A DNA stretch of 64,000 nucleotides from Elusimicrobiota bacterium. GTDB taxonomy: Bacteria; Elusimicrobiota; Elusimicrobia; UBA1565. Each line of letters starts with the position of its first letter. Positions within the stretch are counted from its first letter, which is position 1. The notes below the pieces were generated by a model. It saw nothing but the letters and a program-made list of their open reading frames with translations, searched no databases and was not told the origin of the DNA. The position numbers were made by a program, and so were the translations under genes. Shown piece after piece: positions 951-59,760 of the stretch. Location: assembly GCA_041661185.1 (NCBI GenBank), contig JBAZUV010000004.1:9987-73986 (forward strand), in the 5' to 3' direction.

Positions 951-973
951 GCCGTCGACGGATAGGTAAGAGG

Positions 974-4349: not shown

Positions 4350-4403
4350 TTCCAGGACGAATGGCCCAGATATGACCGCTTTATTATGGCAAAAATAGCG
4401 CGC

Positions 4404-4450
4404 TAGGAGCGTGTCACCCGATCACGAAAAGGAATTACTCGGACACGATC
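4404..4450. repeat. 46-bp hairpin element (copy 1) abutting the stop codon of the 2405-aa gene; candidate terminator
   Basis: ggagcgtgtcacccgatcacgaaaaggaattactcggacacgatcc has ~10-bp arms (ggagcgtgtc/gacacgatcc). A T-run follows on the transcribed strand (rc ...ctatttttgcc). It is ~85% identical to the copy at 11849-11894. Confidence 0.45.
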
Positions 4451-7400
4451 CTAGTGCATGGAGTGCAGTCGCTCGATGCGCTGGATCGTGTCGGGATGCG
4501 TGACGAAAAGGCGGAAGAAGATATCGTCTCCCGGCCCTACGACCCAGCGGCTGAGCCGGTCGAACTCCAGCTTCCAGCCCGCTCCCCTGAGCTGTTCAAA
4601 GGGATCGACCGTCATCCATGGAGAGCGCGCCGCGATCAACGGCAGTTCCTCGGCTCGGAGTTCGAAATTCTGCGGCTGCCAAGCCGTCAGAAGCCCCAGG
4701 CCCAGCGCGAGCGCGTCAGGATCCCGGGTCAAAAGAGCGCCGTCCTCATCCGCGCCTCCCTCCCGGATGCGCGAGGAACCCATCTGAAGAAGCTGGGCCA
4801 TGATCGGCGCCCAGAGCGCCGCGAACACCTTGAGCACGCCGAAGGCCGCGGCCGCGGAGACCGGCTCCACGGATTCAGGCTTCACTCCCGCCGAAATCTT
4901 GGGATGCTTCACGGCGGAGCTCCGATGCGCCTTGTTTCCGGTCAGGCGCGCCCAGCCCGACTCAATGCTGCCCAAGATCCACAGCACCCAGGAGGCGCTT
5001 AAAGCGACGGCGGCCGTCAGGCTCTCGGAAACGGCGCCGATCACCATATCGCGGTTCATGACATGGCTGAGTTCATGGCCGAGTATCCCGCGCAGGACCC
5101 TCACGCCCAAAGCCTTCAGCTCGGAAGGGGCAGCCTCTGCCACGGCCGCGCGCAGCGCAGCGCTCCCGGTTTGCCGCGAGACTCCGCGGATAGAATCGCT
5201 GATGGCGGAGCGGAACGCGTCGAAGGGGATTCCGGAAGGGTCGGACTGGTCGATCAAGCGCAGGAGGCCGTTCCTCAATCCCTCCGGGTCCAGGAGCATG
5301 CGCTCGATCTCCGGGGTGACGCCCACGACCGCCTTGCTCGGGCTCAGCCCCGCGGCGAAAGCATTAGGCACGTCCATGGGCGCTTCGATGATCTCCGGCA
5401 TGGGAATCGGCTTGCGGCCCTTGGCCTCCAGGCCCTTGTTGATGATGCCTCGAAGCTCCCGCACGACCTGGAACACCTCGGGAGCGTCTTCCTCCGAGAG
5501 GGGACCGGCCTTCATCATCTTCATGATCAGCTTCGGACTGAAATAGACCTGCAGGCCGATGAGCGCGGAAGCCGCGCCCAGATGCGCCAGAAAAGCGGTC
5601 CAGCCGAACACGGTCGCGCTGAGAAGAGCCCCGAAAGCGCCGAGCCCTCCCAATGCCAGAACGGTCTTGAACCAGTAATGATGCTCCGTACGAACCGTCG
5701 GGGCATGCTGGACCGGCTGCTTTGCAGGCTCGGGCCGCGTGGAAGGCGCTGGATTGCCCGCAGGCAGGAGCCGGCCAAGGAGACGCTCCATCCAGACGGC
5801 GGAACGATGAGGAAGGAGCGTCAGCACCGCGAACGTGACCGGCGCGGCGAAACCGGTCGCCGCCGACCAGAGCGCCGCGACCGTGAAGAGCGCGTCGAAG
5901 ACCCGGGTGCGGCCGAAAAGAACCCAGGCGATCACCATGGGAATGATCCCTGCCGGGGAGTAGCCCGTGGCCAGGGCGAAGATCGCTCCAAAAAGCGCCC
6001 AGGAATACTCCGGAAAGCGCATCCCCGGCATCTGGAAAGGCTTCCCGCTCTCAGCGGAGCGGATGACGGCTCCCAGGAAGAACGCGAGCGTGGCCATGGC
6101 CGGGACAGCGGTCAAAGCCGCCAAGCCCGCCGGCGTCAACGACCCGGCCGCTGAAACGCCCATGAGCATCCGAGGAAGCTTGCCGGCCAGCCAGGCAGCG
6201 GCGCTGCCGAGAATGCCCGGCGCTCCTTGGCCGATAAAGGCCTGTCCTGCGGCAGTCGCGGGACCTCCGGCTGTTATCGCCAAAGAAGAAAGCGTCGTGC
6301 CCATAAGCGCGGGCGCGAGAGCCAGAAGCGCGCCGAGGTACGCGCCGATCAGGACATCGAGCGCGAGCTTGACTCCCCCCAAGCGCGGGCTGTCCCTCAG
6401 AAAAAGACGCCAGCGCGCGTAAAGCGCCATGGGCAGGACGAAGACTCCCGGGCTTAAGGCCCAGAACGCGGCCGCGGGAACGATGCCGAAAATAGAAGGA
6501 AGGAACATCACTGCCGCGCCGTGCAGGAGATAGGCCGCCGCGGCCGCGGCCAGGGCCCGCGCCAATGAGAGACGGGCTTCAGCTCCGGGGCTGAGCCTGG
6601 CCGTGGAAACAACAGGCTCCGCCTTGGCCGCGGGCCCGACATGTCCGCCGTGATAAGCCTGGAACTGGAAAGCCTCGGAACGGCCGGGAACCGCTTGGGA
6701 AACAGGCGCAAGCGCATCGCGCAGGTCCGCGTCATCCAAGAGCGCGGAACGATCCGGGAGCAGGCCTTGCAAGAAGCGAGTCGTGGACTCGGGGCCTGAA
6801 TCGGCCAGCAGATGGACATTGGACAACCGCGGGTCCGCGGACTCGCCTACGGCCAGAGCCGTTGCCCGCGGCAGAGCCCGGGCCATAGCGGCATCCTGGC
6901 CCCGGGGACCGAAATCATCGCCGAAGATCAGGATGTCTTTCCGGGAGATGAGCTTCTGCTTCTGCGCCAGCCAAAAGATTTCGCGCGCCCCTCCCCCTTT
7001 GTCGGCGCGCGCCACCCAGATCTCAGGCGCGCCGCGTCCCTGCGCAGGATAGCTGAGCACCACGCGATAATCCAGGGGATAGCCCGCCGCCAGGAACGCG
7101 GGAGAGAACGCCTCATAGAGCCGCAGGACCTTCTGGTCGTCGTACCAGTCTTCGTCGGTCATCTTCAAGGCGCGGGCATGCTCCTTGAGCAACGCCTCGA
7201 TGCGCAGAGCCTCCGGGCCCTTGTCCGCGGGCCTTGAAAGGACCGGCCCTCGCGGCCGCTCGCCGCCGGCCCCGTACTGATAGAGCTCCGCCCCTCCGTC
7301 CGTGGACAAGATCATGCCGGCCCGGACGTCCGGCGGCAAGCGGTCCATGAGCAGGCTCGAAAGCCCCCAGCCCCCGCCCGTGAGCGGACGATTGCTGGCG

Positions 7401-10400
7401 AATGCTATACGAACCCCCGCGGCCTTGAGCCGCCGCAGGAGTTCGACGCGCTCGTCGGATACCGGCGAGCCGATGCCGTCGGGATTATCCATGAAGGTCT
7501 TGTCGTAGTCGAGGATCACCAAGGCCGGCGGATGAGCGCGGAAGCTCTTGATGAGCGCTCCCTGGTCCGCCTGAGGAAGGCGGGGAGAAGAGACCGCCAA
7601 GCCCAGCCCCGCGAGCAGGGCGGCCAAGCCCTTCTTGGCGCGATAAGCCCAGGAGATGGACGTAGGCGCCTCTCCGGTGCGCTCGTGCATGGAGTTCCAA
7701 ATGAAGAATGCCGCGACGGAGAGCCACACGAGCACGCCCACGGCGACGGCAGCCGCCGTCGGCAGGAAAGCTGCCGAAAGCGTCAAGGGCAGGGCCGCGG
7801 CCCATGCCCCGAGCTTCACGGCCCCCGAAGCCTTGCGCGCCAGGAACTTCCCTTCCGCGAAGTCCACCTCCACGCTGTCGCCTTCCTGGATGCGGCCTTC
7901 AAGCTCCGCGTCCACGAACGCGTCGTAGACCTGGCGCTCGATCATCTGCTTAAGAGGCCTCGCGCCGTAGATGCGGTTCGCGTCGCTGGAAGCCTCGTCG
8001 ATGATGCGCTTGCGCGCGGCCTCGGTGAGGGAGGCCGTCATCCTCTTGAGCCCGAGGATCTTGGAGAAGTCGGCCAAACGCAGGTCGAGGATCTTCTCGT
8101 AGCCGGCCCGGTCCAGATCCGAGAAGACCAGGACGTTGTCCGCGCCGATGCGGTTGAAGAACTCGGGGGGCACGGCCTTCTTGAACGCATCCAGATAGCG
8201 CTGATGCCGCAGTTCGCCGACGGGCGGCGTGGACATGGGACCCGGCTGAGAGATGCTTCCTCCGAGGTTCGAGGTCATCAGGATGATGGTGTTGGAGAAA
8301 TCCACCACATGCCCCTGCCCGTCGGTCATGCGGCCGTCCTCGAGCACCTGGAGGAATATCTTGAGCACGTCGGGATGCGCCTTCTCCACCTCGTCGAGCA
8401 GGATGACCTGATAAGGGTTGCGGCGCACGGGCTCGGTGAGCTGGCCTCCGTCCTCGTAGCCCACGTAGCCGGGCGGAGCGCTGATGAGCCGGCTGACGTT
8501 CTGCTTCTCCATGTACTCGGACATGTCCAGCCGGGTCATGCTGGCCTCGGACTGGAAAAGGAAGCGCGCCAGGGAGCGCGCCAACTCGGTCTTGCCGACG
8601 CCCGTGGGGCCGAGGAAGGCGAAGACGCCGATGGGCTGCTTGGGATCCTTATAGCCCATGCGCGCGCGCCGCACGGCGCGCACCACGGATTCCACGGCCG
8701 CATCCTGGCCGATCACCGCTTTCTTGAGATCCTCGTCCAAGCGCCCCAGCATGGCCTTATCATCCTTCGAGAGCTCTTGGACCGGGATGCCGGTGCGCAG
8801 GAACACCTCGAAAGCCGCGTCCGCGGGCAGGACCTCCTTCTTGCGGCTCTCCTTGCCTGAACGGCCGGATTCCTCGACCTGGAGCTGGACCTCGCCGGCC
8901 GCGTCGTCCATGAGATCGAGCGCGGAGTCCGGAAGGCTCCGGTCCTTGAGATAGCGCGCAGCCAGACGCACGATCTCCCGGACGGTCTCCGCGGGGATGG
9001 AGACTCCGTGCTTGTCCTCATAGCGGAACTTGACGCCGGAGAGGATGTCGACGGCCTCCTGCTCGCTGGGAGCATCGAGCCGCACCTCTTGGAAGCGGCG
9101 GGCCAAGGCGCCGTCCGCCTCGATCTTGCGGTATTCCGAAAGCGTGGTGGCGCCGATAACCGAAACCTCGCCGACGAGCGCTTCCTTGAGCATGCTCGCC
9201 GCGTCGGTCGAGCCCTCGCTGTTCCCAAGCCCAAGAATGGTATGGAGTTCGTCGATGAAGAGGATGACGCGGCCGTGGGAGTTCTTGGCCTCCCGGAGCA
9301 CGTCCTTCATTCTCTGCTCGAACTGCCCGCGCAGAGTGGTCCCGGCCAGCATCGCGCCCAGATCGAGCTTGACGATGGACTTGCCGTAGAGCGAAGGGAT
9401 CTCCCCGGCCGCGATGCGCTGCGCCAAACCCTCCACGATCTTGGTCTTGCCCACGCCCTTCTCTCCCGTGACCACGGGATTGTTCTTCTCCACCCGGCCC
9501 AGGACCTTGACCATCTGCCGGATCTCCTGGTCGCGGCCGATGAGCGGGTTCAAGCGTCCCGCAGCGGCTAAAGCCGTGAGGTCCACTCCGAATTTGTTCA
9601 GGTTCGGGAACTCCGAGAGCCCGAGCTTGGGATAGCCCTTATCCGTTCCGGCCGGGACGATCGGCGGAGCCTTCTTCTCAGGAATCGGCGCGAAGCTGCC
9701 TTCCTCTCCCACGATGAGGTCGTCATCATCGACAAACGCAGACGGATCCTCGGGCTGCAGAAACGCTTCATCGGCATGGCCCAATTCCGAGATCGCGAAC
9801 TCCCGCAGATGCTCGAAACTCCTGCGCGCCTCCAGCGACCCGGCTCCCTGCCCGGGCTTCGCCGCATCCAAGAGCTGGACCATCGACGTCAAAACATCCT
9901 TTGAAGGCGGCTGAGGCGCCGCCCCGACGGAATAAGAAGCCCCGTTCAGGTATTCCCTCAGCCTCGACATCTGGTCCCGGGTCTGGACCACGCCCGTCTC
10001 TCCCAGAGGGCGCCCGGCCAATCCCTTTTCAAAGAAGCTCAGCAGGTCGGAGATCACCCACAGCGCCGCGTTCCCGCGCAATGCCGAGGCCTGCCCCTCA
10101 TTGGGATGCGCCCGCCCGAAGAGCCCCCGGTAGCGCTCCAGCATGCCCACGGCCTGTTCGGCGCGGTAGAAGGCCTGCAGATGAGCGTTCTTGCCGTTCT
10201 CGTTGAGAAGGATCGCGACATGGATCAGCAGGGAGTTGGCTGTTTCATCGTCAAAATGCAAGTTCACGGCGCCGGGCACGCGGAGATTGCCGAGCGATTG
10301 AATCTCCACGATCATCTTCGCGCCGTTATGCAGACGGACCCGCCTTCCCGTTTTATGGGATCCCGCCTCACCCGCCGCATGCTCCTGGAGCAGAACCATC

Positions 10401-11668
10401 AGCGCGCCGTAGGCTTCCAGGCGGTATCGCCCTTCGGAAGAAGCGGAATCCTCGTTCTTGGCCAAGGCCGTCAGCATCCCTTGGAAAGATTCAACAGCCC
10501 CGCGAGAGAAGCGGGCCGGCGCATGGCCGAGGTCTTCATACGCATCCTGGATCTGGGAGCGCAAGGACTGGAACAGCTCGCGCTCCTTGGAACCCGCGGG
10601 CAGTCCCTCAACGTGGGCCGCGCTCAGATCCATCAGCGCATTGAGCGCCGCGGCATTGAAGAGGATCTCCGCCTGCTCCTGGTCGGGATGCTGCTCTCCG
10701 AATATCTCCCGGTAGCGTTCATAGTCTTCTCTCGCGCCGGCGAAAAATAGCATGGCGGACAACGCTCCTTTCGCGCCGGCGGCCATGCCCGCGATCCCCT
10801 TGCGCACCTCGGCGCGCACGGATCGTCCGTCGAAGACCTCTTTTCCTGAACGCTCGACCTTCCCTTCGCTCAGGTCGAGCAAAAGGAAATCGCCGCTGCG
10901 CAGCGCCGCCAAGCGTCCCTCTCCAGCCAGTATCGCGAGCATCCGCCGGAGCTTGTCCCTGCCCCAGCCGGCGGACACTGCCGCAGACTGCGCCGCCAGC
11001 ATGACCGGCGAACCGGGTTTGACCCGATTGCTCAGGTCCATGTAAAGTATCCGCGCATCGCGCGCGTCATAGGAGGAAGCCTCCGGCGCATCGCCCGAGA
11101 CCGCGCCGGGAGTCAGGTCCCCCGGCAGCGGCTCGGGCTGAGCATCCTTGACCGCATCGAAGAGGGCTCCGGCCGCGGTCTTCGCAGTCGAGAGGTCCGC
11201 GCGAAGGATGGAAGGCAGAGAGTTCACGAACGCCTGCAGCCGACGGACGCTTGCGGCGCCGCGCGTCTTTGCGAAGATCAGCGCCTTCGCATCCGCGCTC
11301 GCCGCCGGCGCTTCGACCGCGGGAGCGAGCAGCGTCGGCGATCCCTCCCTGGGAACAAACCCCTGCGGCAGGACCCCAGGGGCCTTGACGTCGACTCTCT
11401 GGATCGGAAGGATGGAAGACCTCTCAAAAAATGAACTCTCCGGCATGATCTTGACGCCCTGCATAGGCGCGCCCGACATCGCCCCATTCCCAAACGTCCC
11501 GGGAACCGCCAAAGGAATGACCATTACGTCCGCAGCCGGAAGTTTGACGGTCTGGGCGGCGGCTTGCAGCGCGCCCAGGCCCGGACAGGTCCAGATCAGC
11601 GCGGCGCACATGATGATGGAAACAGCTCGAGGAATCTCCGCCCGGATCTTCAGAAAATATGGCTTCAT
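4451..11668 (-). CDS. 2405-aa multidomain protein: N-terminal hydrophobic segment, Clp_N-like repeats, ClpA/B-type double AAA+ (D1+D2), 2 TM, HAD-like phosphatase domain, ~8 TM, C-terminal HtpX/M48 zinc-peptidase domain
   Basis: A single stop-free frame of 7218 nt. D1 has Walker A GEKGVGKT (aa 735) and Walker [10 protein letters not shown]2 has Walker A GPTGVGKT (aa 1019), Walker [12 protein letters not shown] and sensor [10 protein letters not shown]. The HAD motifs are ILDYDKT, ASNRP and FGDDFG..DAAM. The M48 motifs are [28 protein letters not shown] and a C-terminal [11 protein letters not shown]. Confidence 0.7.
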
Positions 11669-11894: not shown

Positions 11895-13830
11895 TGGCGG
11901 CTTTGCGCTCGGCGGGATCCGTCAATTGGAGATTCCGGTAGGCGTCATAATATCCGCGGAGTCCCTCGACCAAGGTCTTGGCGAAGCGGTCCTGCCAGAC
12001 AGGGTCCAAGAGCATCTCCTCCTGCTCGGGCAGCATCACATACGCGGACTCCGTGAGCACCGCGGGCATCTGCGGAATGCGGCAGACCGCGAGATCTCCC
12101 CAGCGCAGAGCATCGTCGAAAAGCGGGATGTCCTTGCGGTGAGCGGCCTGCATGGACTCGGCCAGGAACCGGCTCTGCGGATGATAGTAGAGCATCATGA
12201 ATCCGCGGGGCGCCTCGAAGGGGTCGTCGCTCGCGCCCAAGGCATTGTGATGGATGCTCACCAGCACGTCGCCCTTGGCATCCCACGCCAAGGCCGGCCG
12301 CTCCGTGAGCGCGGGCCCCGCGGAACTCGCGCGCGTGAGGTAAACCTGCGCGCCCTCGGCCTCCAGCAGGGCTTTGACCCGGAAGGCCGTTTCGAGGTTC
12401 ACGTCTTGCTCCTCGGTGCCCAAAGGGCCGAGTCCGCCGTGATCCGGCCCGTGCCCGGGGTCCAAGACCACGCGCCGCCCCTTCAAGACCTTGTCGGAGG
12501 CCGTCAGGTCCGGAGCCCGACGGATATCGAAGAGGAATCGCCCCTTCTCGTAGCGGGCATCATAGCCCGCGCTCCAGCGGATGCGCGTGCGCACGGTCAT
12601 GAGCACGGTCTGGGAATCCTCCTGCCGCCAGACCACCTCGCGGATGATGGGATCGTCGGAAGCATAGCGCAGGCGGTCGATGCGCTGATAGGCGCCGAAG
12701 AAGCGGATCTCGAATTCCAAGGGATCGAGCCGATGCGTCACGGAGAACGGCACGGGCCGCTCCACGGACACGGCCAGGCGCACGGAATCGGAAGACACGG
12801 AGGTGTTCAGATATCGGCCGATGAGGCCGCTGGGCGGCGCGGCGCCCTCGGGCAGCATGCGCACCTGCCCCGGGTCCACCCAGGCGTCATAGCCCGGAGC
12901 CAAGGATACTCGCAAACGGTCTCCAGAACGCCCGGTGACCGCGAGCTGGACCCCGGGAGGGATGAGGATATCGTATCCTCCGGCCAAGGTCTTGAGGATG
13001 GTGCTTCTCGCGGTGCTGATCGCGGTCTCATAAGCCTGCGGGTCCAGGATGCTCACGCGTCCCTGCGCATGCTCCGACCAGGAGCCTGCCTTGCAATGCA
13101 AGGAGACCTTCACGCGATGAGACTTGCCGTGAGCAGAGTCGCCCACGCGCCAGCGCCCGTCGTAGATCCCCGGGCTCGTTTCAAAGAGCGGCATGCCTTC
13201 GACGAGGTCTTCGACGCTGAAGTTCGCTTCCCCGCCCGCAGGCCCCTTGGCCCGGACGGCGACCCAATCGCCTGAGCGGACCCACTGGCTCTCGCGCGGC
13301 TCCAGGACCGCGATGCCGGATGTCCGGGCCTCCTCCGGTCCGTCCACGAGGACATTGCGCGCGAGCGAAGCCGAAGCCCCCGCGCGTTCGGCCAGAAAAT
13401 GAAGGACGAACGCGCCGCTGGAAAAATCCACCATGGACAAGAATGCTCCGTTGCCGCGCACGGGCAGGGAGATCCCGTTGACGGTCAGCGTGGAGCCGGG
13501 AGTGACGCTGCCGAACGCGAAAGCTCGCTTCAAAAAAGGATAGCGCATCCCTTCCTCGGGCCAAACCACGCGCAGTTCAGGAGCCGCTGCGGCTGGAGCG
13601 ACGGCCGTACCAGCGCTCGACACAGCGACAACAACGGCGCTCGATGTCTCAACAGAAGCCGTGACCGTAGACACGGCCTGCACCGTTGTCGTTGAGGAAA
13701 CATTCTGCGGGACCCGCATACCAGCGGGGAGTGCCGCATCCGAAGTTTGTTGGGACGCGGCCTGCGCCCGCGCCGGAGCGCATGCGAGCGCGAGCGCTGC
13801 GAAAAGCCAGCCTGCCGTCTGGAAATTCAT
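11878..13830 (-). CDS. N-acetylmuramoyl-L-alanine amidase (Amidase_3, AmiC-like) with N-terminal signal peptide and beta-rich targeting domains
   Basis: Catalytic domain motifs are VVLDPGHGPDHGG, EEQDVNLETAFRVKALLE and VLVSIHHNAL. The signal peptide is MNFQTAGWLFAALALACAPARA, from the ATG at 13830; the ORF runs to 13878. Confidence 0.85.
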   Translation of the reverse strand: MNFQTAGWLFAALALACAPARAQAASQQTSDAALPAGMRVPQNVSSTTTVQAVSTVTASVETSSAVVVAVSSAGTAVAPAAAAPELRVVWPEEGMRYPFLKRAFAFGSVTPGSTLTVNGISLPVRGNGAFLSMVDFSSGAFVLHFLAERAGASASLARNVLVDGPEEARTSGIAVLEPRESQWVRSGDWVAVRAKGPAGGEANFSVEDLVEGMPLFETSPGIYDGRWRVGDSAHGKSHRVKVSLHCKAGSWSEHAQGRVSILDPQAYETAISTARSTILKTLAGGYDILIPPGVQLAVTGRSGDRLRVSLAPGYDAWVDPGQVRMLPEGAAPPSGLIGRYLNTSVSSDSVRLAVSVERPVPFSVTHRLDPLEFEIRFFGAYQRIDRLRYASDDPIIREVVWRQEDSQTVLMTVRTRIRWSAGYDARYEKGRFLFDIRRAPDLTASDKVLKGRRVVLDPGHGPDHGGLGPLGTEEQDVNLETAFRVKALLEAEGAQVYLTRASSAGPALTERPALAWDAKGDVLVSIHHNALGASDDPFEAPRGFMMLYYHPQSRFLAESMQAAHRKDIPLFDDALRWGDLAVCRIPQMPAVLTESAYVMLPEQEEMLLDPVWQDRFAKTLVEGLRGYYDAYRNLQLTDPAERKAARSVSE

Positions 13831-14393
13831 ATTTTCGCCGACCTCCATTCCCCCGGCCTGAGCCCTTCCAAAGTCCACGCGCCCACGCGCACGCGCACCA
13901 GACGCAGGGTCGGATGTCCGATCGCGGCCGTCATCCTGCGCACCTGCCGGTTGCGGCCCTCGGTCAGGGTCATCTCAAGCCAGACCGCGGGAACGTTCTT
14001 GCGAAATCGTATCGGAGGATCGCGCGGCTCCGACACCGGCTCGCCTTCGATCAGTCGCACGCGGCAAGGCTTCGTCGGACCGTCTCGCAGGGTCACTCCG
14101 CGCGCCAAACGCTCCAGCGCCTCGGCCGACGGCAGACGCTCGACCTGCGCGAGATAAGTCCGCTCATGCCCGAAACGCGGATCGCTGAGGCGATGGTTCA
14201 ATTCCCCATCCGCGGTCAGGACCAGCAGCCCTTCGCTGTCATGATCGAGACGCCCCACCGGATAGATTCCCTTGGGCAGCCCGAACTCCGAAAGAGAACG
14301 ATGCCCGTCGCGCGCAGTGAACTGCGAGAGCACCCCATACGGCTTATAAAACAATACGACTCCGCCCGCCCAAGATATGCTCATGAACCGCAA
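13827..14393 (-). CDS. RsuA/RluE-family rRNA pseudouridine synthase
   Basis: 188 aa with catalytic VGRLDHDSEGLLVLT motif and a RluE-like C-terminus; its stop overlaps the amidase start by 4 nt. Confidence 0.85.
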   Translation of the reverse strand: MRFMSISWAGGVVLFYKPYGVLSQFTARDGHRSLSEFGLPKGIYPVGRLDHDSEGLLVLTADGELNHRLSDPRFGHERTYLAQVERLPSAEALERLARGVTLRDGPTKPCRVRLIEGEPVSEPRDPPIRFRKNVPAVWLEMTLTEGRNRQVRRMTAAIGHPTLRLVRVRVGAWTLEGLRPGEWRSAKI

Positions 14394-14432: not shown

Positions 14433-14512
14433 GGTGCCAGGCGTCAACTTGATTGAAATTCAACTTGCTCGGCCGAGCAAGTTGAATTTCAATCAAGTTG
14501 ACGCCTGGCACC
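14433..14512. repeat. 80-bp perfect palindromic element (copy 1) with GGTGCCAGG / CCTGGCACC termini
   Basis: ggtgccaggcgtcaacttgattgaaattcaacttgctcgg|ccgagcaagttgaatttcaatcaagttgacgcctggcacc is exactly self-complementary and identical to 59681-59760. It lies between the pseudouridine synthase and the kinase genes. Confidence 0.8.
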
Positions 14513-14533
14513 GGCATTCGGCATACTGGCGGC

Positions 14534-15844
14534 ATGTTCCGGCTTGCATTCCTCCTTCTGGCTGGACTCGCCCAAGCCTCGCCCCCGGCTGGGTCCAACA
14601 GTCTTTCTCTCATCCGCGATTCGTCGGAGCCCTCGGAAACAGCCTCCAGCCGGACCCCTGACGCCGGGAACGCGGTCAGCCCCGAAGATAAGGAAAGCTC
14701 GGAAGTCCCCCTGGAGAGAGCCAGGACGCTGCTCCCGAATGCGCCGCTGCTCAGCGGCGCACGCGTCGAATTGCCGCAGACGCCCCAGTCCTCCCACCCC
14801 CCTTCCCAGCCTCCGCCGCCTCGCAGCGGCTTCGCGGCCGCGCCCTCGGATGCCTGGCAGCTGCTCGATGCCGTGGCCGAGCCGCGTCCCGACGCGGCTC
14901 CATGGACCATTCTCGCGCTCCTGAGCCTGTCGACTCTCGCTTGCCTGGGACTTTCCCGGATCCGCCGCAGGCCGGTTGAAGAACCGGCGTCCGCGTCCCC
15001 GGCGGACAACGATCTCCTCGCCGGGAAATACGAACTTTTGCGCATCATCGGCAAAGGCGCGATGGCCGATGTCTGGGAAGCCGCGGACCGTTCGCTCGCC
15101 CGCCGAGTGGCCGTCAAGAAGATCACCTCGCAGCAAGCGCATCCTATCGATGAGGCCCGCGCCTTGGCCTCCCTTCATCATCCTCATATCCTGAGCATCT
15201 ATGAGGTGCTCGATGTCCCCCAAGGGCTCTACCTGGTCTTCGAATTCGTCTCGGGAAAGACCCTTCAGCAGCTACTCGTGGAAGAACACCGCTTGGATCT
15301 TGAGCGCGCCAAAGCCGTGCTCCTGCCGGTCTGCTCGGCCCTGGCGGCCGCTCACGACCGCTGCATCGTGCACCGGGACCTCAAACCCGCAAACATCATG
15401 CTTTCCGACGATGGGAATATCAAGGTGATGGATTTCGGCATCGCCTTGAGGATCGGGACATCGCAAGCTCCTGCCGTTGGAACGGATGGAGTTTCCCATC
15501 CCGGCAGCAGGGCTTCCTCCTTCGAAGGGACGCCGGCCTACATGGCCCCGGAAGCGCAAGACGGCTGCGTGAGCCCGTCCTGCGACGTCTATTCCCTGGG
15601 AGTCTGCCTCTACGAGCTCTTATCCGGCGAGCGTCCTTTCGGGCAGGTCTCCCTGCCCCAGAAGCTCGTGCGCGCCTATCCCCGACTCAGCACGCGCGTC
15701 CCGGGCCTGCCGAAGGACGCGGATGCGCTCATCGACGCGGTCTTGGACCCGGATCCCCGCACGCGGATGAAGGATGTCCGCGCTTTCCGCCGAGTATTGG
15801 AATCTATCGTGTTGGAAACAGAAACAGTCCGGCCGCGCCCATGA
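14534..15844 (+). CDS. Hanks-type Ser/Thr protein kinase, membrane-anchored
   Basis: Kinase motifs are GKGAMADVWEA, VAVKK, HRDLKPANIML, DFGIA and APE. It has an N-terminal signal/TM, a Pro-rich spacer and a TM (WTILALLSLSTLACLGL) ahead of the kinase domain. The ATG at 14534 (MFRLAFLLL) is preferred over the ORF start at 14498, which lies inside the palindrome. Confidence 0.85.
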   Translation: MFRLAFLLLAGLAQASPPAGSNSLSLIRDSSEPSETASSRTPDAGNAVSPEDKESSEVPLERARTLLPNAPLLSGARVELPQTPQSSHPPSQPPPPRSGFAAAPSDAWQLLDAVAEPRPDAAPWTILALLSLSTLACLGLSRIRRRPVEEPASASPADNDLLAGKYELLRIIGKGAMADVWEAADRSLARRVAVKKITSQQAHPIDEARALASLHHPHILSIYEVLDVPQGLYLVFEFVSGKTLQQLLVEEHRLDLERAKAVLLPVCSALAAAHDRCIVHRDLKPANIMLSDDGNIKVMDFGIALRIGTSQAPAVGTDGVSHPGSRASSFEGTPAYMAPEAQDGCVSPSCDVYSLGVCLYELLSGERPFGQVSLPQKLVRAYPRLSTRVPGLPKDADALIDAVLDPDPRTRMKDVRAFRRVLESIVLETETVRPRP

Positions 15845-18800
15845 CCCAGCGCTTGAAGACGTCCCTCACGGCCTGCCGCCAGCCCCGCGCCGGCGGAAGG
15901 TCCGCGGACCTTGCCGCGAAAAACCCGTAACGCTCCCGCGCCCGGCTCATCATATCCCGCGACTGCGCGATCACCCGCTCCGGTTCCTTGAGTTCCTCTT
16001 CCAGCGCCGCAAGCGCGCGCTTCTCGTCGATGAGCCCCGCCCCAGCCTCCAGAAGACCCTGTCCGGCCAAAGGAGCGGCGGTGCGGGCGATCAAGGACTC
16101 CAGGTAGAAGCTGTAGCCGTCGGGCAATCCATCGGCCTTCTCCCGAAGCACCGCCGCCATCTTCTCGATGAGCAGCGCGAATTTCCCGGTGGTATGTTCG
16201 GCCGCGACCGAAGTCCCGGAGAACGTGCGGTAAAGAGGCTTCCCCTGCCACAAGACCGTGGTGGGAGCGTCCTTGGCTTGCTGGGCGAGCTTGGAAGCGA
16301 AGGCCGAGGCGATCTCATAGGGATTGGGCATGCCGAACGCCACGGCTCCGCCGTAGTCCACCCAGGAAAGCGCCGCGGAATCCGCGGAACCCCTTGCCGA
16401 ATAGAAAGCCAGGGCCCCGGATTTATCCACGGCTCCCACGCGGATGGCGAGTTCGGCCTTGGCCGGGACATCCAGGCTTCCGGGCGAGGGCCCTTCATTG
16501 CCCGCCGCGGCGATCACCGTGATGTTCTTGAGCCTGAGCGCATCCACGAGCCTGGCGAACGGAGAATCCGCCCTCCCCTGACCGCCGAGGCTCAGGTTCA
16601 CGATCATCGGAGTCTTAAGCGGGTCTTGGACCAGGCTCGCGGCCCATTCCAGCCCGGCCATGACCATGGCATCGGTCCCGCCGTCCGCGCTCAGGACTTT
16701 CCCGACCGCGAAGTCCACGTCGGGCGCCATGCCCTCGTAGGGAGAGCCCTCCACGCTGCGTCCGCCCACGATGCCCATGCCGTACGTCCCGTGGCCGAGA
16801 GCCTCTCCATCGACCGCGTTCCCCGGAGCCGTAAAATTCCTCTTGCCCTTGATGCGGTCCCCGGCCAAGGCCGGATGCGAAAGATCCGCGCCCTCGTCGA
16901 GATAAGCCACGAGCACGCCCCGGCCCGTCAGGCCCGAAGCCGCCCGTATCTCCGGGATGCCGGAAAGAGGGCCGGTCTCATTGAGCAGAGGATAGACCGG
17001 CCGCGCCTTATGCACCCTCCAGCCCTTGGACTCCAGCTCCGCGGTGAAGGCCAGGACCTGCGTATCCGGGACATTCACCCATAGCGCCTGCGCATTCGGG
17101 AAAGCCGCCTGCAAATCCGCCTCGAAACGCTCCATGACGGCCGGCTCCAAGCCGTAACCCGCGGCCGCGCTGAGCGCCGCGCTCTTGGCTCCGCCGCGAA
17201 GATCCTGGAAGCGCTCCACGCGCGGCGCAAGAAGGCCTTCTTTCGTGTTCGCGCGCGGAAGCTCGAGTATCAGATGCAGAGGCCCAAGATTCGGGTCCAC
17301 GCCCGCCACGCCCGCGCCGCCGCGGTCCTGGACCGGAGTGGGAAGATCGAGCGGGATATCCAGGATCTTGGCCAGCGTCGAGACCAGCTCGCCCAAAGCC
17401 CCCGGCCGGCCCGCCGCGGCCTTATGCGCCTGGACGAAGCCCGCGGCGCTCTCGCGCAGAGGCGGCTTCTTCAACCGCGTCTTGAACGCCGCGGACCGGT
17501 TCGCGGTCCGGAAGAACTTCGAGATCGTGCGCGTCAGCGCGAGGTTCCCAGGACCCGCCGCAGCCAAGAGAGCGCAAACGGCTCCGTCCGTGATCAGGGC
17601 CTGGTTCAGGTTGGCGAGCTCCGTGAGCGACGCCGCGGCCAGATGGCGGATATTGCCGCGCTCCGAGGCGTCCGCGACGCGGCCGGCCAAAGCCTCCACG
17701 ACCTCCGGCGAAGCGCGCCCGCCCAGCTGTCCGGCCAGCCACACGGCCGTAAATCGCGTCTTCTTATCAGGATTCGTCATCTCCGCGCGGATCCTGGGCA
17801 GGCCGGAGACATCCCCATGCCGGGCCAGAGCATAGGCGGCATAAAGCCCGACGTCGGGCCGCTCATCGCCGCACGCCTTGCGCAGAAGTTCATCGGCGCC
17901 GTAATGCGGGATCTCGGCCAAAGCCAGGAAAGCCGTCTGCCGCACGCGGCCGTCCTCATCGCTCAACGCCGCCGCGGCCAAGTCCAGCACGGCCTCCGGC
18001 GCCTTGAGGTTCATGAGCGTGAAGGCCGCATAGAAGCGGACCACCCAGACCTCGTCTTTGAGCGCCTGCCTCAGTTCCGGGGCCGCCTGCGCCCGGAGCT
18101 GCGCGAAGCGGGCCTGGACCGACTGCTCATCCTGCGCGGAAACAGCCTCAGGGACCGCCTCATCATCATCCTCGGAAGGTTCTTCGGAGGCGCCTTCCGC
18201 GCGAGCGTCGCGCGAGCGAGCCGCGTTCTGCCGGCCGACCTCCGCGGCGCCATTAAAGACCCGGTCCTCCAGGCGCTGGACCTGCGCGGCGCGGTCGATC
18301 CAAGCCCAGGAAGGAACAGGGCTCGCCGCGGCCAATCCCGCGGCAGCGGCGAGCACCCTGAAAAGCTTAAAGCGCGAAACGCCCGGCGCCGGGCCGAAAG
18401 TCTCTGCCGCGAGCTTGACGGCCGCCAGCGCGTCCACGAAACCCGCCCCCTGGAAAAAAACAGGGACGCGCATATCCACCGCGGAACGCATAAGCAGCAT
18501 CTTCACGCAGAAAGACAGCTGATCGCGGAAATACTCGTACGCCGCGGAGCCGGCGCCGATGACCTTGCGGACGGCCTGCTTGACCAGCAATGCGATGGCC
18601 GCCACCTGGGGATTGGCCATGGAGGACCCGGCCATGCGGGTATGGAGCCCGTCCTCCGTATTGGAAGGGCCCGGCGGCATATCCTTGGAACGGACCGAGG
18701 TGATGCCCTGCGAATAGACGTCCTTGTTCCCCGGAAGAGTGGTCACGTCCCCGCCCAGCGCCGTGATGTCCGGCTTGAGGACCCAGCGCGTGAGTCCGTA

Positions 18801-21800
18801 GCGCTTGAAGCGGCCGTCCAATGCCGGCCCCACCGAAGAGTAGAACGCGGTCTCCGGTACGCCGTCGTCGAGGCTTTTGGCCGCGGCGCCCACGTCGATC
18901 ATGTTCCGGGCGTTGGCGGGCTGGCTCAAGGTCTTATTGAACGGACCCGCGTTCCCGCTCGATCCCGTGCCGATGAGCGGCTCCCCGGAAGCGCTCTTCT
19001 GCTCCAAGAGATGCGAGAAAAACTCAGCCAAGGGCGCATCGCTGTCCCCGGGACTGCCGAGGCTGACGCTGACGACGTCCGAACCCCACTTCATGGCATC
19101 CACGGCCGCGGCCATGATGTCGCCGTCGGAAGCGCCCTGCCCGGCCTGGGAGAAGACCTTGCCCATGCGTCCCTCGGCCGCGGGCGCCATGCCCTTGTAA
19201 AGAGGCCCGTTGGCATAGGAGATGCCGGCCTTATGCGTGCCGTGCCCGCTCCAATCCTCGGGTCCCTCGCCCACGAAATCGATGCACTGCAGGATGCGGT
19301 CCGCGAAATCAGGATGCGTCACATCGAGCCCGGTGTCGATATCGTAGATGCGTCCGCCTTCGCCCCGGATGCGGAGCTTCCAGACCGGCACGACGTCCTG
19401 GATGATCCCGCTCTCGAGGAGCTGGACGCGGTAGCCTCCGCGGGAAGCTCCGAAGCGCACGCCGCGCGCGCCGGAAAGCCGCTTGAGCACCTTCGAGTAG
19501 GCCTTGAGCACGCTGACATAGATGCGGTTGTCTCCCACGTCCCGGCCGAAGACATGTCGGACCCGCAAGCCCGCCTGGACGAAGCGCGCGCGCTCCTGGT
19601 CGTTGAAGCCGAAGGAGCGCAGAAGATCGTCCTGGGCCGGCGCGGAAGGGTCCGTATCGAGGTTGAGCTGCGAATGAGGAAGGCTCACCCCTTTGGCGGG
19701 AGTCAGCCACAGGTTCAGGCGCGGCTCCATCTTTCGCGCCACGATCACGTGCCCGCCCTCGGCAAGGTCCACGCGCTGGACCTGGAACTCGCCGTTGTCC
19801 GAGGAAGTCCAGAACCGGAAAACCCTTTCGACCAGCGCGACTCCGGGATCGGAGGAATGGAAAGGAAGGAGCACGATCCCATGGTCCTGCAGCCCCGCGT
19901 ACAAAGCCTGCAAATAGTCTGCCAGGCCCACGTCCTGGAGCTGGGTCCCGGAGAACTCGTTCATCATCTTGTTCAAGGCCGCGGAGACTCCCTCGACCGA
20001 TCCATTGCCCCCCACATGCACTCCGATGTTGTCGCCCAGAGTCTTCAATCGCAGAGCCAGCGGCCCGCCGGACTTGAACCCTTCGCGCGAGCTCGAGCGG
20101 TTGCGCTGTTCGAGCCGATAGGCCTCGTCGATGGAGCGCAGGGCCTGCTCAAGCCGTCGGTTCTCCGCGGAGTCCTCCAAAGGCAAGGAGAGATGGACGT
20201 TCGGGAGCACGATCACCCGGTAGCGGCCGGCATGCTCGGGCGCCTGGAGGAGCCTCTTGAGCTCCGAAGGCTCCACGCGGGCGTTCTCCCGGGATGCGAA
20301 CCCGGTCATGTCCGCAGGATCGGCGACCACGAGCCCTTTCTCCGGCAGACCGGTATAAAGACCCCGCACGCGCGCCCGTCCCTCGGAGAGCACGTCATAG
20401 GCCGAGGGGTTCAGGAGCTCCGAGCTGGAAGGCTCGACGATGAGCACGGGATAAGGAGCCCCCAGACGCAGGGAGACCTGCGCCTCCTTCAAGACGCGTT
20501 CGAGCACCGGGATGCGCAAGGACTTGAGCCACTGCCGGCTGTGCCATTCCCCGGCGCGGGCCAAGGCCTCGTCGCTCAGTCCGCGGAAGAATCCCCCGAG
20601 TCCCTTGCTGCGCCGAGCCAAGGGTTCGCGCCGGCCGTTCTGCAGATAATGCCCCATCTCGTGCTTGAGCACGGCCTGGAAGAGCCCGGGCGCGCGCGCA
20701 AGCTCGGGCCGCAGATAGATCGCATCGCCCTGCGACACGCCGAAAGCGAAACCGGAGAAGCGCCCCCTCTGCGGCCGGTAGATCCGCAGGATGCCGCGGC
20801 CGGGAGCGTATCCCAGCAATCCGGAGATCACGCTCGGATGCAGGCCCATCTCCAGGAGCTGGGCTTTGGCGAAATCCCAGAACTCGCGGTCCGAGATATC
20901 GGCCCGAAAGAAAACAGCCCAAGAGAACACGGCAAGGTCATAGAGCGCCCAGCCTGAGAAGACCGCGCCCATCACCCCCGCGGCCGCCATCGTGACCCGC
21001 AAAGGCTCCGCGAACGCGGCAAGAGCCTCCACCAGCCAGGGGGAGTGGATCAGCGCCGCATGCGCAAGGACCCAGCCGGACCCAAAGAACACGGCTGCGG
21101 CCGTTATGAAAACCGCGGCCGACAACGCCGCCAGCACCGCCGGGAACAGCACTCTGCGATACCGGATCTCCTGCTGCGCGGACTTCCGAGCCGCAAGCGC
21201 CGGGACCTGCCCGGAAGTCCGGCCCGCGCCTACAACTCCGTCATCCCGGTCCACGTCTACAACTCCGTCATCCCGGCTGACGACAGCGCCCTGCTCGTCA
21301 TTCCGGCGAAAGCCGGAATCCAGGATAAGGCTGGACCCCGGGTCAAGCCCGGGGTGACGACGGCCGACTGCACCCCGCCCTTCGCCGGGAGTCTGAATCT
21401 CCAGACCCCCTGCTTGGCCAAGTTCTCCTTGCCCGCCGAGACGGCGCGTGAAATCCTCGGCCGCGGCCTGCTGGGAAGCTTCGATCCCTCCATCCGCAGC
21501 CTGATCCAAGAATGAAGACGGCCCGCGCAGAGCCTTCCATAAACGCCCGGCTCCGCGGACGAACAAACGCACGACCCCTTTGCTCGCTTCATCCTTGCGG
21601 CCAACTTCGTCATCTCTGCTCGCGTCTACAACTCCGTCATCCCGGCGAAAGCCGGGACCCAGCAGTAGCCTGGACCCCGGGTCAAGCCCGGGGTGACGAG
21701 AGTAAAGGGTCTTGCCATTCACTGCGCCGGAAGCTTCCTGCTTATCGGGAAAGATCTCCATCTTTGGGACATCCACAGATACGCCCACGCCTGAACCCGC

Positions 21801-22085
21801 AAGCGGCTGGAGCTCGTTGGACACAGGAAGCGTCAGCAGAAAAGGCAGTGCGTTCCGGGGAAGAAAGATGGCCGGACCGGAAGGGATGCCGGCAGCCGCG
21901 ATCTGCTGGACGGGAAGCGCTTGACCTGCGGGAACGGCCTGCGCAGCGCCGGAAACCGCGCTCTGCGCCCAAAGCTCATAGGAGCGCGCTCCGGGAGACA
22001 GCAGTATGAGCGCCGCGCAGAGCGTGCCCGCGACTGTCTTTTTACAACGGACTGCGAAATTATTCCTATCCAATGCCCGGCCCAA
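15804..22085 (-). CDS. Giant membrane-anchored multi-protease: HExxH metallopeptidase-like motif, two subtilisin S8 domains, HEAT repeats; true start probably near ~21100
   Basis: S8 #1 has the triad DIDTG, SGHGTHKAG, GSSMANPQVAAIA. S8 #2 has LDEGAD, LGHGTYG, AAGNEG, SGTSVAAEHTTG. HEAT/PBS repeats lie between them (VRQTAFLALAEI..., TRFTAVWLAGQLG...). KHEMGHYLQNG follows a 2-3 TM block. N-terminal residues ~60-300 translate the hairpin-repeat DNA (RHPGLDPGS...GFRRDD twice). Confidence 0.7.
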   Translation of the reverse strand: MGRALDRNNFAVRCKKTVAGTLCAALILLSPGARSYELWAQSAVSGAAQAVPAGQALPVQQIAAAGIPSGPAIFLPRNALPFLLTLPVSNELQPLAGSGVGVSVDVPKMEIFPDKQEASGAVNGKTLYSRHPGLDPGSRLLLGPGFRRDDGVVDASRDDEVGRKDEASKGVVRLFVRGAGRLWKALRGPSSFLDQAADGGIEASQQAAAEDFTRRLGGQGELGQAGGLEIQTPGEGRGAVGRRHPGLDPGSSLILDSGFRRNDEQGAVVSRDDGVVDVDRDDGVVGAGRTSGQVPALAARKSAQQEIRYRRVLFPAVLAALSAAVFITAAAVFFGSGWVLAHAALIHSPWLVEALAAFAEPLRVTMAAAGVMGAVFSGWALYDLAVFSWAVFFRADISDREFWDFAKAQLLEMGLHPSVISGLLGYAPGRGILRIYRPQRGRFSGFAFGVSQGDAIYLRPELARAPGLFQAVLKHEMGHYLQNGRREPLARRSKGLGGFFRGLSDEALARAGEWHSRQWLKSLRIPVLERVLKEAQVSLRLGAPYPVLIVEPSSSELLNPSAYDVLSEGRARVRGLYTGLPEKGLVVADPADMTGFASRENARVEPSELKRLLQAPEHAGRYRVIVLPNVHLSLPLEDSAENRRLEQALRSIDEAYRLEQRNRSSSREGFKSGGPLALRLKTLGDNIGVHVGGNGSVEGVSAALNKMMNEFSGTQLQDVGLADYLQALYAGLQDHGIVLLPFHSSDPGVALVERVFRFWTSSDNGEFQVQRVDLAEGGHVIVARKMEPRLNLWLTPAKGVSLPHSQLNLDTDPSAPAQDDLLRSFGFNDQERARFVQAGLRVRHVFGRDVGDNRIYVSVLKAYSKVLKRLSGARGVRFGASRGGYRVQLLESGIIQDVVPVWKLRIRGEGGRIYDIDTGLDVTHPDFADRILQCIDFVGEGPEDWSGHGTHKAGISYANGPLYKGMAPAAEGRMGKVFSQAGQGASDGDIMAAAVDAMKWGSDVVSVSLGSPGDSDAPLAEFFSHLLEQKSASGEPLIGTGSSGNAGPFNKTLSQPANARNMIDVGAAAKSLDDGVPETAFYSSVGPALDGRFKRYGLTRWVLKPDITALGGDVTTLPGNKDVYSQGITSVRSKDMPPGPSNTEDGLHTRMAGSSMANPQVAAIALLVKQAVRKVIGAGSAAYEYFRDQLSFCVKMLLMRSAVDMRVPVFFQGAGFVDALAAVKLAAETFGPAPGVSRFKLFRVLAAAAGLAAASPVPSWAWIDRAAQVQRLEDRVFNGAAEVGRQNAARSRDARAEGASEEPSEDDDEAVPEAVSAQDEQSVQARFAQLRAQAAPELRQALKDEVWVVRFYAAFTLMNLKAPEAVLDLAAAALSDEDGRVRQTAFLALAEIPHYGADELLRKACGDERPDVGLYAAYALARHGDVSGLPRIRAEMTNPDKKTRFTAVWLAGQLGGRASPEVVEALAGRVADASERGNIRHLAAASLTELANLNQALITDGAVCALLAAAGPGNLALTRTISKFFRTANRSAAFKTRLKKPPLRESAAGFVQAHKAAAGRPGALGELVSTLAKILDIPLDLPTPVQDRGGAGVAGVDPNLGPLHLILELPRANTKEGLLAPRVERFQDLRGGAKSAALSAAAGYGLEPAVMERFEADLQAAFPNAQALWVNVPDTQVLAFTAELESKGWRVHKARPVYPLLNETGPLSGIPEIRAASGLTGRGVLVAYLDEGADLSHPALAGDRIKGKRNFTAPGNAVDGEALGHGTYGMGIVGGRSVEGSPYEGMAPDVDFAVGKVLSADGGTDAMVMAGLEWAASLVQDPLKTPMIVNLSLGGQGRADSPFARLVDALRLKNITVIAAAGNEGPSPGSLDVPAKAELAIRVGAVDKSGALAFYSARGSADSAALSWVDYGGAVAFGMPNPYEIASAFASKLAQQAKDAPTTVLWQGKPLYRTFSGTSVAAEHTTGKFALLIEKMAAVLREKADGLPDGYSFYLESLIARTAAPLAGQGLLEAGAGLIDEKRALAALEEELKEPERVIAQSRDMMSRARERYGFFAARSADLPPARGWRQAVRDVFKRWVMGAAGLFLFPTR
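21225..21362. repeat. GC-rich GNRA-hairpin cluster 2 (includes a 3x direct repeat of tctacaactccgtcatcccgg extending into cluster 3)
   Basis: It contains gtcatcccggc..., gtcattccggcgaaagccggaatccagg and ctggaccccgggtcaagcccggggtgac. Confidence 0.55.
21625..21690. repeat. GC-rich GNRA-hairpin cluster 3
   Basis: gtcatcccggcgaaagccgggacccag ... ctggaccccgggtcaagcccggggtgac (an inverted pair). Confidence 0.55.
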
Positions 22086-23346: not shown

Positions 23347-23470
23347 CGTCATCCCGGCGAAAACCGGGACCCAGCCATCCGTCTCCCCGGCGAAAGCCGG
23401 GGTCCAGCTGATCCTAGATCCCGGCTTCCGCCGGGATGACGGCCTTACCGGCTCTCGCCGGAATGACGGG
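23347..23470. repeat. GC-rich GNRA-hairpin cluster 4
   Basis: gtcatcccggcgaaaaccgggacccag, ccccggcgaaagccggggtccag, ccggcttccgccgggatgac, ctctcgccggaatgac. Confidence 0.6.
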
Positions 23471-47963: not shown

Positions 47964-48176
47964 GACACAGGTTCTACGCACACAAGAGAGTTTAATATCA
48001 GCCCTTTTCTGATTTGTTGATTCGCTGTTAAAAAGATGTTGCGCCGGCCCGTTCCTGAGGCCTGTCTGAATAATGGTATCAGCGCTCATAGGCTCGGGCA
48101 TGGGCCCTTCTGCTCACCCCTCCCCCGCCATAGGACCCACCAGAACCTAGGACCAAAGACTATCTGGTGCCTATCT

Positions 48177-48246
48177 GGTGCCAGGGGTCATTTTGTTCGC
48201 GTAACTTTCCGCGGAAAGTTACGCGAACAAAATGACCCCTGGCACC
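48177..48246. repeat. 70-bp perfect palindromic element sharing GGTGCCAGG / CCTGGCACC termini with the 80-bp elements
   Basis: ggtgccaggggtcattttgttcgcgtaactttccgcgg|aaagttacgcgaacaaaatgacccctggcacc is preceded by the tandem duplication ctatctggtgc-ctatctggtgc. Confidence 0.75.
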
Positions 48247-57492: not shown

Positions 57493-57556
57493 GAAGCCAT
57501 TGTATTCGAGCCCAGCTATGAAGTCAACGACATTGACGCCAGGCGTCAACTGCGAG

Positions 57557-57665
57557 TCGTCATCCCGGCGAAAGCCGGGACCCAGGGACTGCCGTTCTGC
57601 CGTGATCCTGGATTCCGGCTTCCGCCGGAATGACGGCTGTAGGCTTCAGCCGGAATGACGTAACG
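57557..57665. repeat. GC-rich GNRA-hairpin cluster 7, flanked by fragments of the GGTGCCAGG palindromic family (57533-57551, 57680-57697)
   Basis: gtcatcccggcgaaagccgggacccagg, ctggattccggcttccgccggaatgac, cttcagccggaatgac. Nearby lie ttgacgccaggcgtcaa and gtgacgcctggcacc. Confidence 0.6.
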
Positions 57666-57709
57666 GCGGCTAACGCGCTGTGACGCCTGGCACCGCCGTT
57701 CGTTGGCTG

Positions 57710-58383: not shown

Positions 58384-59664
<1,281 letters not shown>

Positions 59665-59680
59665 AAGAAACCCCCTATTC

Positions 59681-59760
59681 GGTGCCAGGCGTCAACTTGA
59701 TTGAAATTCAACTTGCTCGGCCGAGCAAGTTGAATTTCAATCAAGTTGACGCCTGGCACC
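59681..59760. repeat. 80-bp perfect palindromic element (copy 2), identical to 14433-14512
   Basis: It exactly fills the gap between the purA start and the neighbouring gene's stop. Confidence 0.8.

Follow-up and report, generated by a model that had tools for sequence, protein, structure and literature searches.

What are the perfect palindromes that recur between unrelated genes on this piece of an Elusimicrobiota chromosome, and did they arrive there by transposition or are they regulatory sites of the host? The window, by which we mean the whole 64,000-nucleotide stretch analysed here, is part of ENA sample ERZ27249449 (metagenome contig k141_187138 of 100,168 bp, bases 8201-72200). The following features of the window are at issue.

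Palindromes in the window and their surroundings

14433..14512, unstranded: copy 1, a perfect 80-bp palindrome of two head-to-head 40-nt arms, arm GGTGCCAGGCGTCAACTTGATTGAAATTCAACTTGCTCGG
59681..59760, unstranded: copy 2, the same 80-mer as copy 1, in the order stop codon, 4 nt, element, 16 nt with the RBS, GTG of purA
48177..48246, unstranded: copy 3, a perfect 70-bp palindrome of a second subfamily, arm GGTGCCAGGGGTCATTTTGTTCGCGTAACTTTCCG
57535..57694, unstranded: broken copy, left head with two substitutions (GACGCCAGGCGTCAACT), right head with all 14 nt perfect (57681-57694)
48162..48183, plus strand: 11-nt tandem duplication, TATCTGGTGCC twice, across the left boundary of copy 3
14498..14527, plus strand: promoter-like site, an outward -35-like TTGACG in the right head of copy 1 plus CATACT in the flank

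Direct sequence comparison confirmed that copies 1 and 2 are the same perfectly self-complementary sequence, with 40-nt arms that are 100% complementary and a spacer of zero, and that copy 3 is a different perfect palindrome, a 70-mer. The ends are conserved between the palindromes, as the original prediction held, but over 14 nt and not over the 9 nt it gave: all three intact copies share the head GGTGCCAGGSGTCA, that is, GGTGCCAGG[C/G]GTCA. The window arms start with GGTGCCAGG, and their self-complementarity goes no further than the 11-nt TTGAAATTCAA. The 9-mer GGTGCCAGG occurs eight times in the window against 0.81 expected, and none of 100 shuffles reached eight; the isolated match at 58374 could be due to chance. 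In single-stranded folding, the 80-mer reached -48.4 kcal/mol (z = -17.8) and the 70-mer -42.4 kcal/mol (z = -13.3), with dinucleotide shuffles as reference.

The supposed fragments of ends at 57.5 kb are indeed heads, but the two belong together: they close off a single broken copy, 57535-57694, whose interior is an inverted pair of CGTC-tagged REPs, a different repeat. An arm profile gave no significant second arm to the left of the 57535 head. The junction at 57535 (TTGACGCC followed by AGGCGTCAA) and the duplication at 48162 were first taken to hint at a nick at GGTGCC^AGG. This reading was dropped, as the 57535 head is more simply explained by two substitutions that turn GGTGCC into GACGCC. 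The 11-nt duplication at the left edge of copy 3 could be due to slippage or could be a trace of an earlier event.

All copies in the window are intergenic, wedged between genes as had been described, and their neighbours are ordinary chromosomal genes (amidase, pseudouridine synthase, Ser/Thr kinase, purA, xerC, topA). Copy 1 is flanked by divergent genes for a pseudouridine synthase (13827-14393, minus strand) and a Ser/Thr kinase (plus strand). The overlap claimed between copy 1 and the kinase start exists only for the longest ORF, which opens at TTG 14498, but the in-frame ATG at 14534 sits 22 nt outside the element. This ATG is the probable start, and it opens the signal-peptide-like MFRLAFLLLAG; the overlap is probably an artefact of ORF extension. 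The promoter-like site 14498-14527 ends 6 nt upstream of the ATG and was read from its match to the consensus alone. A sigma-54 promoter reading of the head TGGCAC was rejected, since the -12 TTGC would lie in the non-conserved flanks. Giant ORFs stand on either side of copy 1 (4451-11668, minus strand, 2405 aa; 15804-22085, minus strand, 2093 aa).

On one side of copy 2 is the stop codon of a 318-aa gene, on the other the RBS of purA (PurA is encoded at 58384-59664). Copy 3 begins 1 nt past the stop of a 614-aa ORF and stands 75 nt upstream of a 1178-aa FlgD_ig/CHU_C gene.

Relatives of the element and a transposase gene between the same ends

We scanned one genome per species from 185,579 species for GGTGCCAGGNGTCA-N30-60-TGACNCCTGGCACC and obtained 17 loci. 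Three were clear relatives, all in Elusimicrobiota (L011, and L014 and L017 of GWA2_69_24), and their arms begin GGTGCCAGG[C/G]GTCAACTT. The same GWA2_69_24 elements accounted for two of the seven stretches found in the JGI metagenome scan. Five further elements (L019, L021-L024) all came from metagenome Ga0172379. The exact-head pattern is thus rare beyond the window, with 3 loci in 185,579 species genomes and 7 metagenome stretches. A scan of viral contigs for the element pattern and a literature search for the element sequences themselves both gave nothing, and Rfam 15 had no match at gathering score over the whole window.

Four of the Ga0172379 contigs showed a tetranucleotide correlation of 0.96-0.98 with the window, whose own 8-kb chunks gave 0.956-0.986. 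They probably come from the window genome or a close relative. Two of the four also carry the CGTC-tagged REP of the window.

Related elements (n=11) fold into hairpins of 65-88 nt with stems of 30-42 bp, loops of 0-8 nt and 0-3 mismatches, on the same 14-nt foot. Two arm types co-occur: type a reads ...GTCAACTT[A/G]...GGAAT...TCAACT and type b ...GTCATTT[T/A]...GC[G/C/A]TAACT. Within type b (copy 3, L019, L021 and L022), we observed compensatory double changes in 5 of 30 stem pairs, with one broken cell; the arms thus stay complementary to each other as the interior diverges. Solo arms were found as well (L019 at 2923, L024 at 1680). Short direct repeats recur within arms: TCAACTTG twice in the arm of copy 1, AGTGGAAT twice in L023 and AACTTTCT three times in L030.

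Other repeats accompany these elements. The small hairpin CGTCATCCCGGCGAAAGCCGGGA, which matches the 'CGTC-tagged REP' class, has 13 occurrences within 3 mismatches, often as inverted pairs, at the following sites.

Window, CGTC repeat: 848, 21296, 21635, 23347-23468, 24583-24645, 38439-38488 and 57558-57635
Outside the window, CGTC repeat: L022 at 8512; L023 at 7186/7248

Di Nocera et al. (PMC3733652) found no dedicated transposase for CGTC-tagged REPs. At 29738-29903 the window has a nested inverted repeat, with 24-nt perfect arms (TGGAGCCGAGGGGAAACACCCTCC) 61 nt apart inside a second, 28-nt pair. It is present as a single copy in the window, has no Rfam match and may represent a further small mobile element or else a structured RNA. 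Two hairpins with CCGGA.../...TCCGG ends may represent another family. One is perfect, its 19-bp stem closed by a loop of 5 nt (window 27986-28028), and the other is a perfect 38-bp zero-loop palindrome that adjoins CGTC REPs (L023 7116-7153, CCGGAAAAATTCGTGCGCC followed by GGCGCACGAATTTTTCCGG). Further inverted repeats were seen at 50180-50530, 33273-33406 and 1-254. Their arms measure 28 nt (96% complementary, 86 nt apart), 79 nt (71%), 30 nt (90%, separated by 74 nt) and, where the window opens, 25 nt (96%, 204 nt apart). On the same contig, ~8.5-9.7 kb past the right end of the window, lies a DUF3322 + JetD_C gene, a Wadjet-type defence component (L025 1-1158).

A search for a cognate IS200/IS605-family TnpA had been suggested together with the original prediction, and it was decisive. 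At six independent related loci (L014, L029, L030, L031, L033 and L037), one of them in the same sample as the window, inverted arms of 24-36 nt with the same ends surround a HUH/Y1 gene of ~290 aa. In L014 (Elusimicrobia GWA2_69_24), the head occurs at 240 (plus) and 1196 (minus) and bounds a unit of 957 bp with the inverted arms GGTGCCAGGGGTCAACTTAGTGGA. Its sole long ORF (265-1149, minus strand) encodes 294 aa. The arm of copy 1 is homologous over ~35 nt to the terminal repeat at this gene. The L014 protein scored 37.4 bits against Pfam Y1_Tnp (cutoff 23) and 79.3 bits against NCBIfam NF047646, 'REP-associated tyrosine transposase', which is 0.7 below the cutoff of 80. Homologues that are 51-58% identical to it mostly have inverted GGTGCC-headed arms; remnant flanks only were present in L027/L028 and L026. 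The arm heads at four of the loci read as follows.

L029: GGTGCCAGGCATCCACTTTCTACACTTT
L030: GGTG[A/C]CAGGGTTCAACTTTCTTAACTTTCTCAACTT
L033: GGTGCC[T/A]GGCGTCAACTTATCGGA
L037: GGTGCCGGTGGTC[G/A]ACTTTCTC

The locus from the same sample as the window, L031 (ERZ27249449 k141_102878), has a 294-aa gene, P0011, at 3800-4684. A complete palindrome without a loop stands on each side of it, both with the head GGTGGCAGGGGTCA, which differs from the window head in 1 nt: a perfect 58-mer at 3703-3760 and a second one at 4661-4718 with one mismatch. The identical sequence is present in Ga0172379 (L032). This contig may derive from another Elusimicrobiota organism, because its tetranucleotide correlation with the window (0.924) is lower than that among the window's own 8-kb chunks (0.956-0.986). 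By tblastn and profile HMM, we found no such gene in the 64-kb window, in the 5.6 kb beyond it or in the probable home-genome contigs.

In an alignment of eight proteins, the HUH motif (NH[FIL]HL) and the tyrosine motif (RYIH[LF]N) are invariant. The sole significant match to a solved structure was 4ER8, the E. coli TnpA_REP (E = 4e-8), with both motifs aligned. A C-terminal helix-turn-helix-like block, G[YHC]..[TR][EQ][IV]A.[YF]L, is also conserved. In this region the Pfam scores are under gathering (HTH_23 at most 21.9 bits, cutoff 24.6; Bac_DnaA_C 14-15 bits), and many more distant homologues have precomputed PF08299 or PF13384 matches.

Upstream of the genes, we noted by eye the motif GGAAC-N16/17-CGTA[T/C], 8-13 nt before the start of all eight (e.g. 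GGGAACTTTTTTAGGACTCGATCGTATATC), at the following sites.

L014, minus strand: ~1140-1175
L031: ~3765-3795
L026, L027, L029, L030, L033 and L037: one site each

The layout GGAAC-spacer-CGTA is that of ECF-sigma promoters. This suggests that expression of the transposase may be stress-controlled and nearly leaderless.

Position among TIRYT, REPIN/RAYT and IS200/IS605 systems

Di Nocera 2013 (PMC3733652) described the TIRYT as a RAYT-like gene flanked by long TIRs and not by GTAG REPs, with the TIRtron as the unit. The repeats of TIRYTs share GGGGWSAS and can build up families of moderate abundance, made of singles, dimers and clusters (PMC3733652). Most TIRYTs were placed in subclass 2.1 by Quentin 2018 (PMC6006769), with C-termini that are Bac_DnaA_C or HTH; in subclass 2.1.2 the C-terminal HTH is Bac_DnaA_C, HTH_23 or HTH_28, and no REP-like sequences were found beside subclass 2.1 genes.

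We compared the L014 protein by BLASTP with the sequences printed in Additional file 5 of Di Nocera 2013. The TIRYTs sml1152, gbm2474, dau2153, tkm1558 and aba2776 matched with 31-37% identity (E 1e-21 to 1e-30), and the canonical RAYTs eco b228 and pfs3939 with E ~1e-11. On this comparison of protein sequences, made with the relatives' proteins as the window has no such gene, the transposase of the relatives is nearer to TIRYTs from the literature than it is to canonical RAYTs.

In the repeats, GGGGTCA[A/T], which agrees with GGGGWSAS at 7 of 8 positions, is present in the arms of L014 and L031 and in copy 3 of the window. Looser variants (GGCATCC, GGGTTCA, GGCGTCA, GGTGGTC) occur in the arms of L029, L030, L033 and L037 and in copies 1 and 2. 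The terminal repeats of the D. ferrireducens and S. termitida plasmid homologues (Desulforamulus ferrireducens and Sporomusa termitida; 32-34% identical) start with GGGGTCAGG and contain GGGGWSAS exactly (GGGGTCAG), and the repeat of a homologue on a Legionella adelaidensis plasmid (38% identical) differs from this by one nucleotide (GAGGGTCAGG). The D. ferrireducens repeat has TGCATAA twice. These motifs make the inner heptamer GGGGTCA the counterpart of the TIRYT end motif as published, whereas the outer heptamer GGTGCCA is an Elusimicrobiota addition.

Like the TIRYT/TIRtron systems, the loci described here have a ~290-aa Y1/HUH gene with a putative C-terminal helix-turn-helix region, long inverted repeats at the gene in place of GTAG REPs, and repeats scattered as singles and dimers, as in S. 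maltophilia and K. versatilis (PMC3733652). In our material, this dispersal comprises three intact dimers and one broken dimer in the window and the solo arms in L019 and L024. The differences lie in the phylum, Elusimicrobiota, which is not met in the searched text of PMC3733652 and PMC6006769, and in the repeats, where the outer heptamer GGTGCCA precedes GGGGTCA. Moreover, the dimers of this sample are perfect zero-loop palindromes, at least two arm subfamilies stand under one 14-nt head, and the L031 gene sits between complete dimers in a REPtron-like layout.

REPIN/RAYT systems (Bertels and Rainey 2011, PMC3116915; PMC3479197) resemble the elements in that a long hairpin is built from two inverted arms, copies without coding content are dispersed outside genes and lack target duplications, and a Y1 gene is flanked by the same repeats, with TnpA_REP 4ER8 as the best structure match. 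However, REPs are by definition imperfect palindromes of 20-40 nt that carry a GT[AG]G tag at the 5' end, and the window arms do not fit this definition. Since they have no GT[AG]G tag and are not small palindromes themselves, we filed the elements under TIRYT and not under RAYT/REP. The protein here also has almost double the length of E. coli RayT and a putative HTH at its C-terminus, and the copy number looks modest, not in the hundreds. The IS200/IS605 family (IS608, ISDra2) shares the Pfam Y1_Tnp superfamily, the lack of target duplication and, presumably, a chemistry guided by single-stranded hairpins. Its members differ in having subterminal imperfect hairpins and no TIRs, and a TnpA of ~130-150 aa, often with tnpB; none of this was seen here.

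Very probably, therefore, the palindromes are non-autonomous mobile elements: head-to-head dimers of a TIRYT-class TIR, and functional analogues of REPINs. We read them as TIRYT-repeat dimers because the same head and arm flank a transposase gene in six loci, because the protein is TIRYT-like and because GGGGTCA matches the published motif. The elements are an Elusimicrobiota instance of TIRYT/TIRtron repeats, analogous to REPINs, and what is new is the phylum, the double-heptamer head and the perfect dimers.

Mobility, mechanism and the wider family

Copies 1 and 2 are identical and their flanks are unrelated. The gene order dprA-topA-xerC-hyp-purA is kept in three relatives (L034-L036), whose purA site is empty. 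The hyp-purA spacer is 10 bp in L035 and L036, 70 bp of unrelated sequence in L034, and 4 + 80 + 16 bp in the window. Because the purA spacer of the relatives is without the element, we consider it an insertion in the window lineage and not an ancestral operator. These relatives are distant and not strains, with PurA 71% identical (the nearest PurA proteins, all from Elusimicrobiota MAGs, are 71-73% identical). The idea of an operator conserved at orthologous positions thus finds no counterpart at purA. An operator or a site for a dimeric protein also fits poorly with one 80-mer in two unrelated contexts, and among the earlier readings it is the MITE-like one that is backed, by the transposase gene between the same ends.

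Selected host hairpins that are not mobile, such as intercistronic stabilisers, attenuators or RNase III sites, are a very improbable alternative. Copies 2 and 3 do lie just past stop codons between co-directional genes, the purA copy would be part of an operon transcript (the spacer of relatives is 10 nt), and the predicted stems are very stable. However, copy 1 stands between divergent genes, the same 80-mer occurs at unrelated genes, and the orthologous purA site is without the element. No T-tract follows the stems (flanks GGCATTCGG, GGGATCACG and ATCAGCG), we observed no terminator-like site at copies 1 and 2, and there is no Rfam family. Such hairpins would not account for the same ends at a transposase gene six times.

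The way of insertion bears on the kind of transposase. A search for target-site duplications had been proposed as a check; direct repeats flank none of the 13 complete elements. This is as expected of Y1 transposition and speaks against a MITE of the DDE type. At the few insertion sites, the element tends weakly to be preceded by a pyrimidine and followed by a purine, with an AT-rich 'TAT/CTA' on one flank. Classical MITEs, which would be deletion derivatives of a DDE insertion sequence with ~40-bp TIRs moved as double-stranded DNA, would explain TIRs with a conserved tip and small, intergenic elements in several subfamilies. We nevertheless hold this to be highly improbable: with no flanking direct repeats at any of the 13, the only gene found between these ends was the Y1/HUH transposase, no DDE gene lay between such ends in ~330 kb of sequence, and recognition as a hairpin agrees better with the covariation between arms and the near-zero loops.

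Least likely is a duplex or cruciform site for an enzyme or DNA-binding protein (a telomere-resolvase palindrome, a Xer/dif-like or attC-like site, an operator), for which the perfect dyad symmetry, the presence of a xerC-like gene at ~1 kb from copy 2 and the attC-like combination of conserved ends and variable interior could be cited, but xerC and its synteny are kept in relatives without the element, no integron integrase, cassette array or GTTRRRY cores were found, nothing telomere-resolvase-like was present among the scanned window genes, and the copies are scattered among housekeeping genes.

For the TIRYT-repeat dimers, we propose a mechanism in which every step is drawn by analogy with IS608 TnpA and E. 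coli TnpA_REP (PMC3479197, PMC6006769). The searchable literature, in which PMC3733652 and PMC6006769 name the TIRYTs, gave no biochemistry of any of them. The single-stranded element, for example on the lagging-strand template, would form the hairpin. A TIRYT acting in trans would bind the conserved 14-nt foot, which consists of the two heptamers GGTGCCA and GGGGTCA. Its catalytic tyrosine would nick the strand, and the strand would be rejoined elsewhere without target duplication. The direct repeats in the arms (TCAACTTG, AGTGGAAT, AACTTTCT) are candidate sites for the putative C-terminal helix-turn-helix and, speculatively, may match each subfamily to its transposase. Where neighbouring genes are affected, for instance by a 38-bp hairpin within the hyp-purA transcript or by the outward -35-like hexamer, this would be a side effect. 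Cutting by RNase III, as envisaged in the original prediction, would likewise follow from the hairpins and would not account for where they came from.

Four distinct sequences in sample ERZ27249449 are perfect palindromes through the centre, and selection on the stem alone would not demand palindromy through the centre with zero-nt loops. More speculatively, such palindromes might arise when one arm is copied on a hairpin template, in a rolling-hairpin-like process with an HUH nick, and not through selection on a stem.

For annotation, the finding accounts for perfect palindromes of 70-80 bp in very short intercistronic spacers, as in the purA operon, and it warns that ORF starts reaching into such palindromes are artefacts.

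The remaining 14 loci of the genome scan (L001-L010, L012, L013, L015 and L016) belong to MAGs outside the phylum, of Acidobacteriota, Gemmatimonadota, Binataceae and Chloroflexota. We had taken these matches for chance, and this was dropped after folding revealed heptamer-array hairpins, whose stems consist of 2-7 tandem GGTGYCA facing TGRCACC around a variable centre. Examples are as follows.

L003, 6203-6318: heptamer-array hairpin
L009, 4485-4578: heptamer-array hairpin
L001, 7389-7488: heptamer-array hairpin

No TIRYT gene was found within the 8-kb heptamer-array loci. Two heptamers of this kind, GGTGCCA and GGGGTCA, make up the 14-nt head of the window elements. It is a tentative and rather doubtful idea that GGNGYCA is a general TIRYT recognition unit, with the array hairpins maybe part of the same system. 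If TIRYT-type enzymes do spread the array hairpins, these would form an undescribed cross-phylum family of REPIN analogues.

The TIRYT-type family counts 5,491 cluster representatives (50% identity) at E <= 1e-30 and 28,931 at 1e-10. Because the enzyme family is this large, the well-defined Elusimicrobiota substrates are of some practical value. They provide a clean definition of a substrate, with an invariant double-heptamer foot, a variable complementary stem, direct repeats in the arms and single-arm or dimer flanks. Such substrates open the nick position and the specificity of the putative C-terminal helix-turn-helix to experiment.
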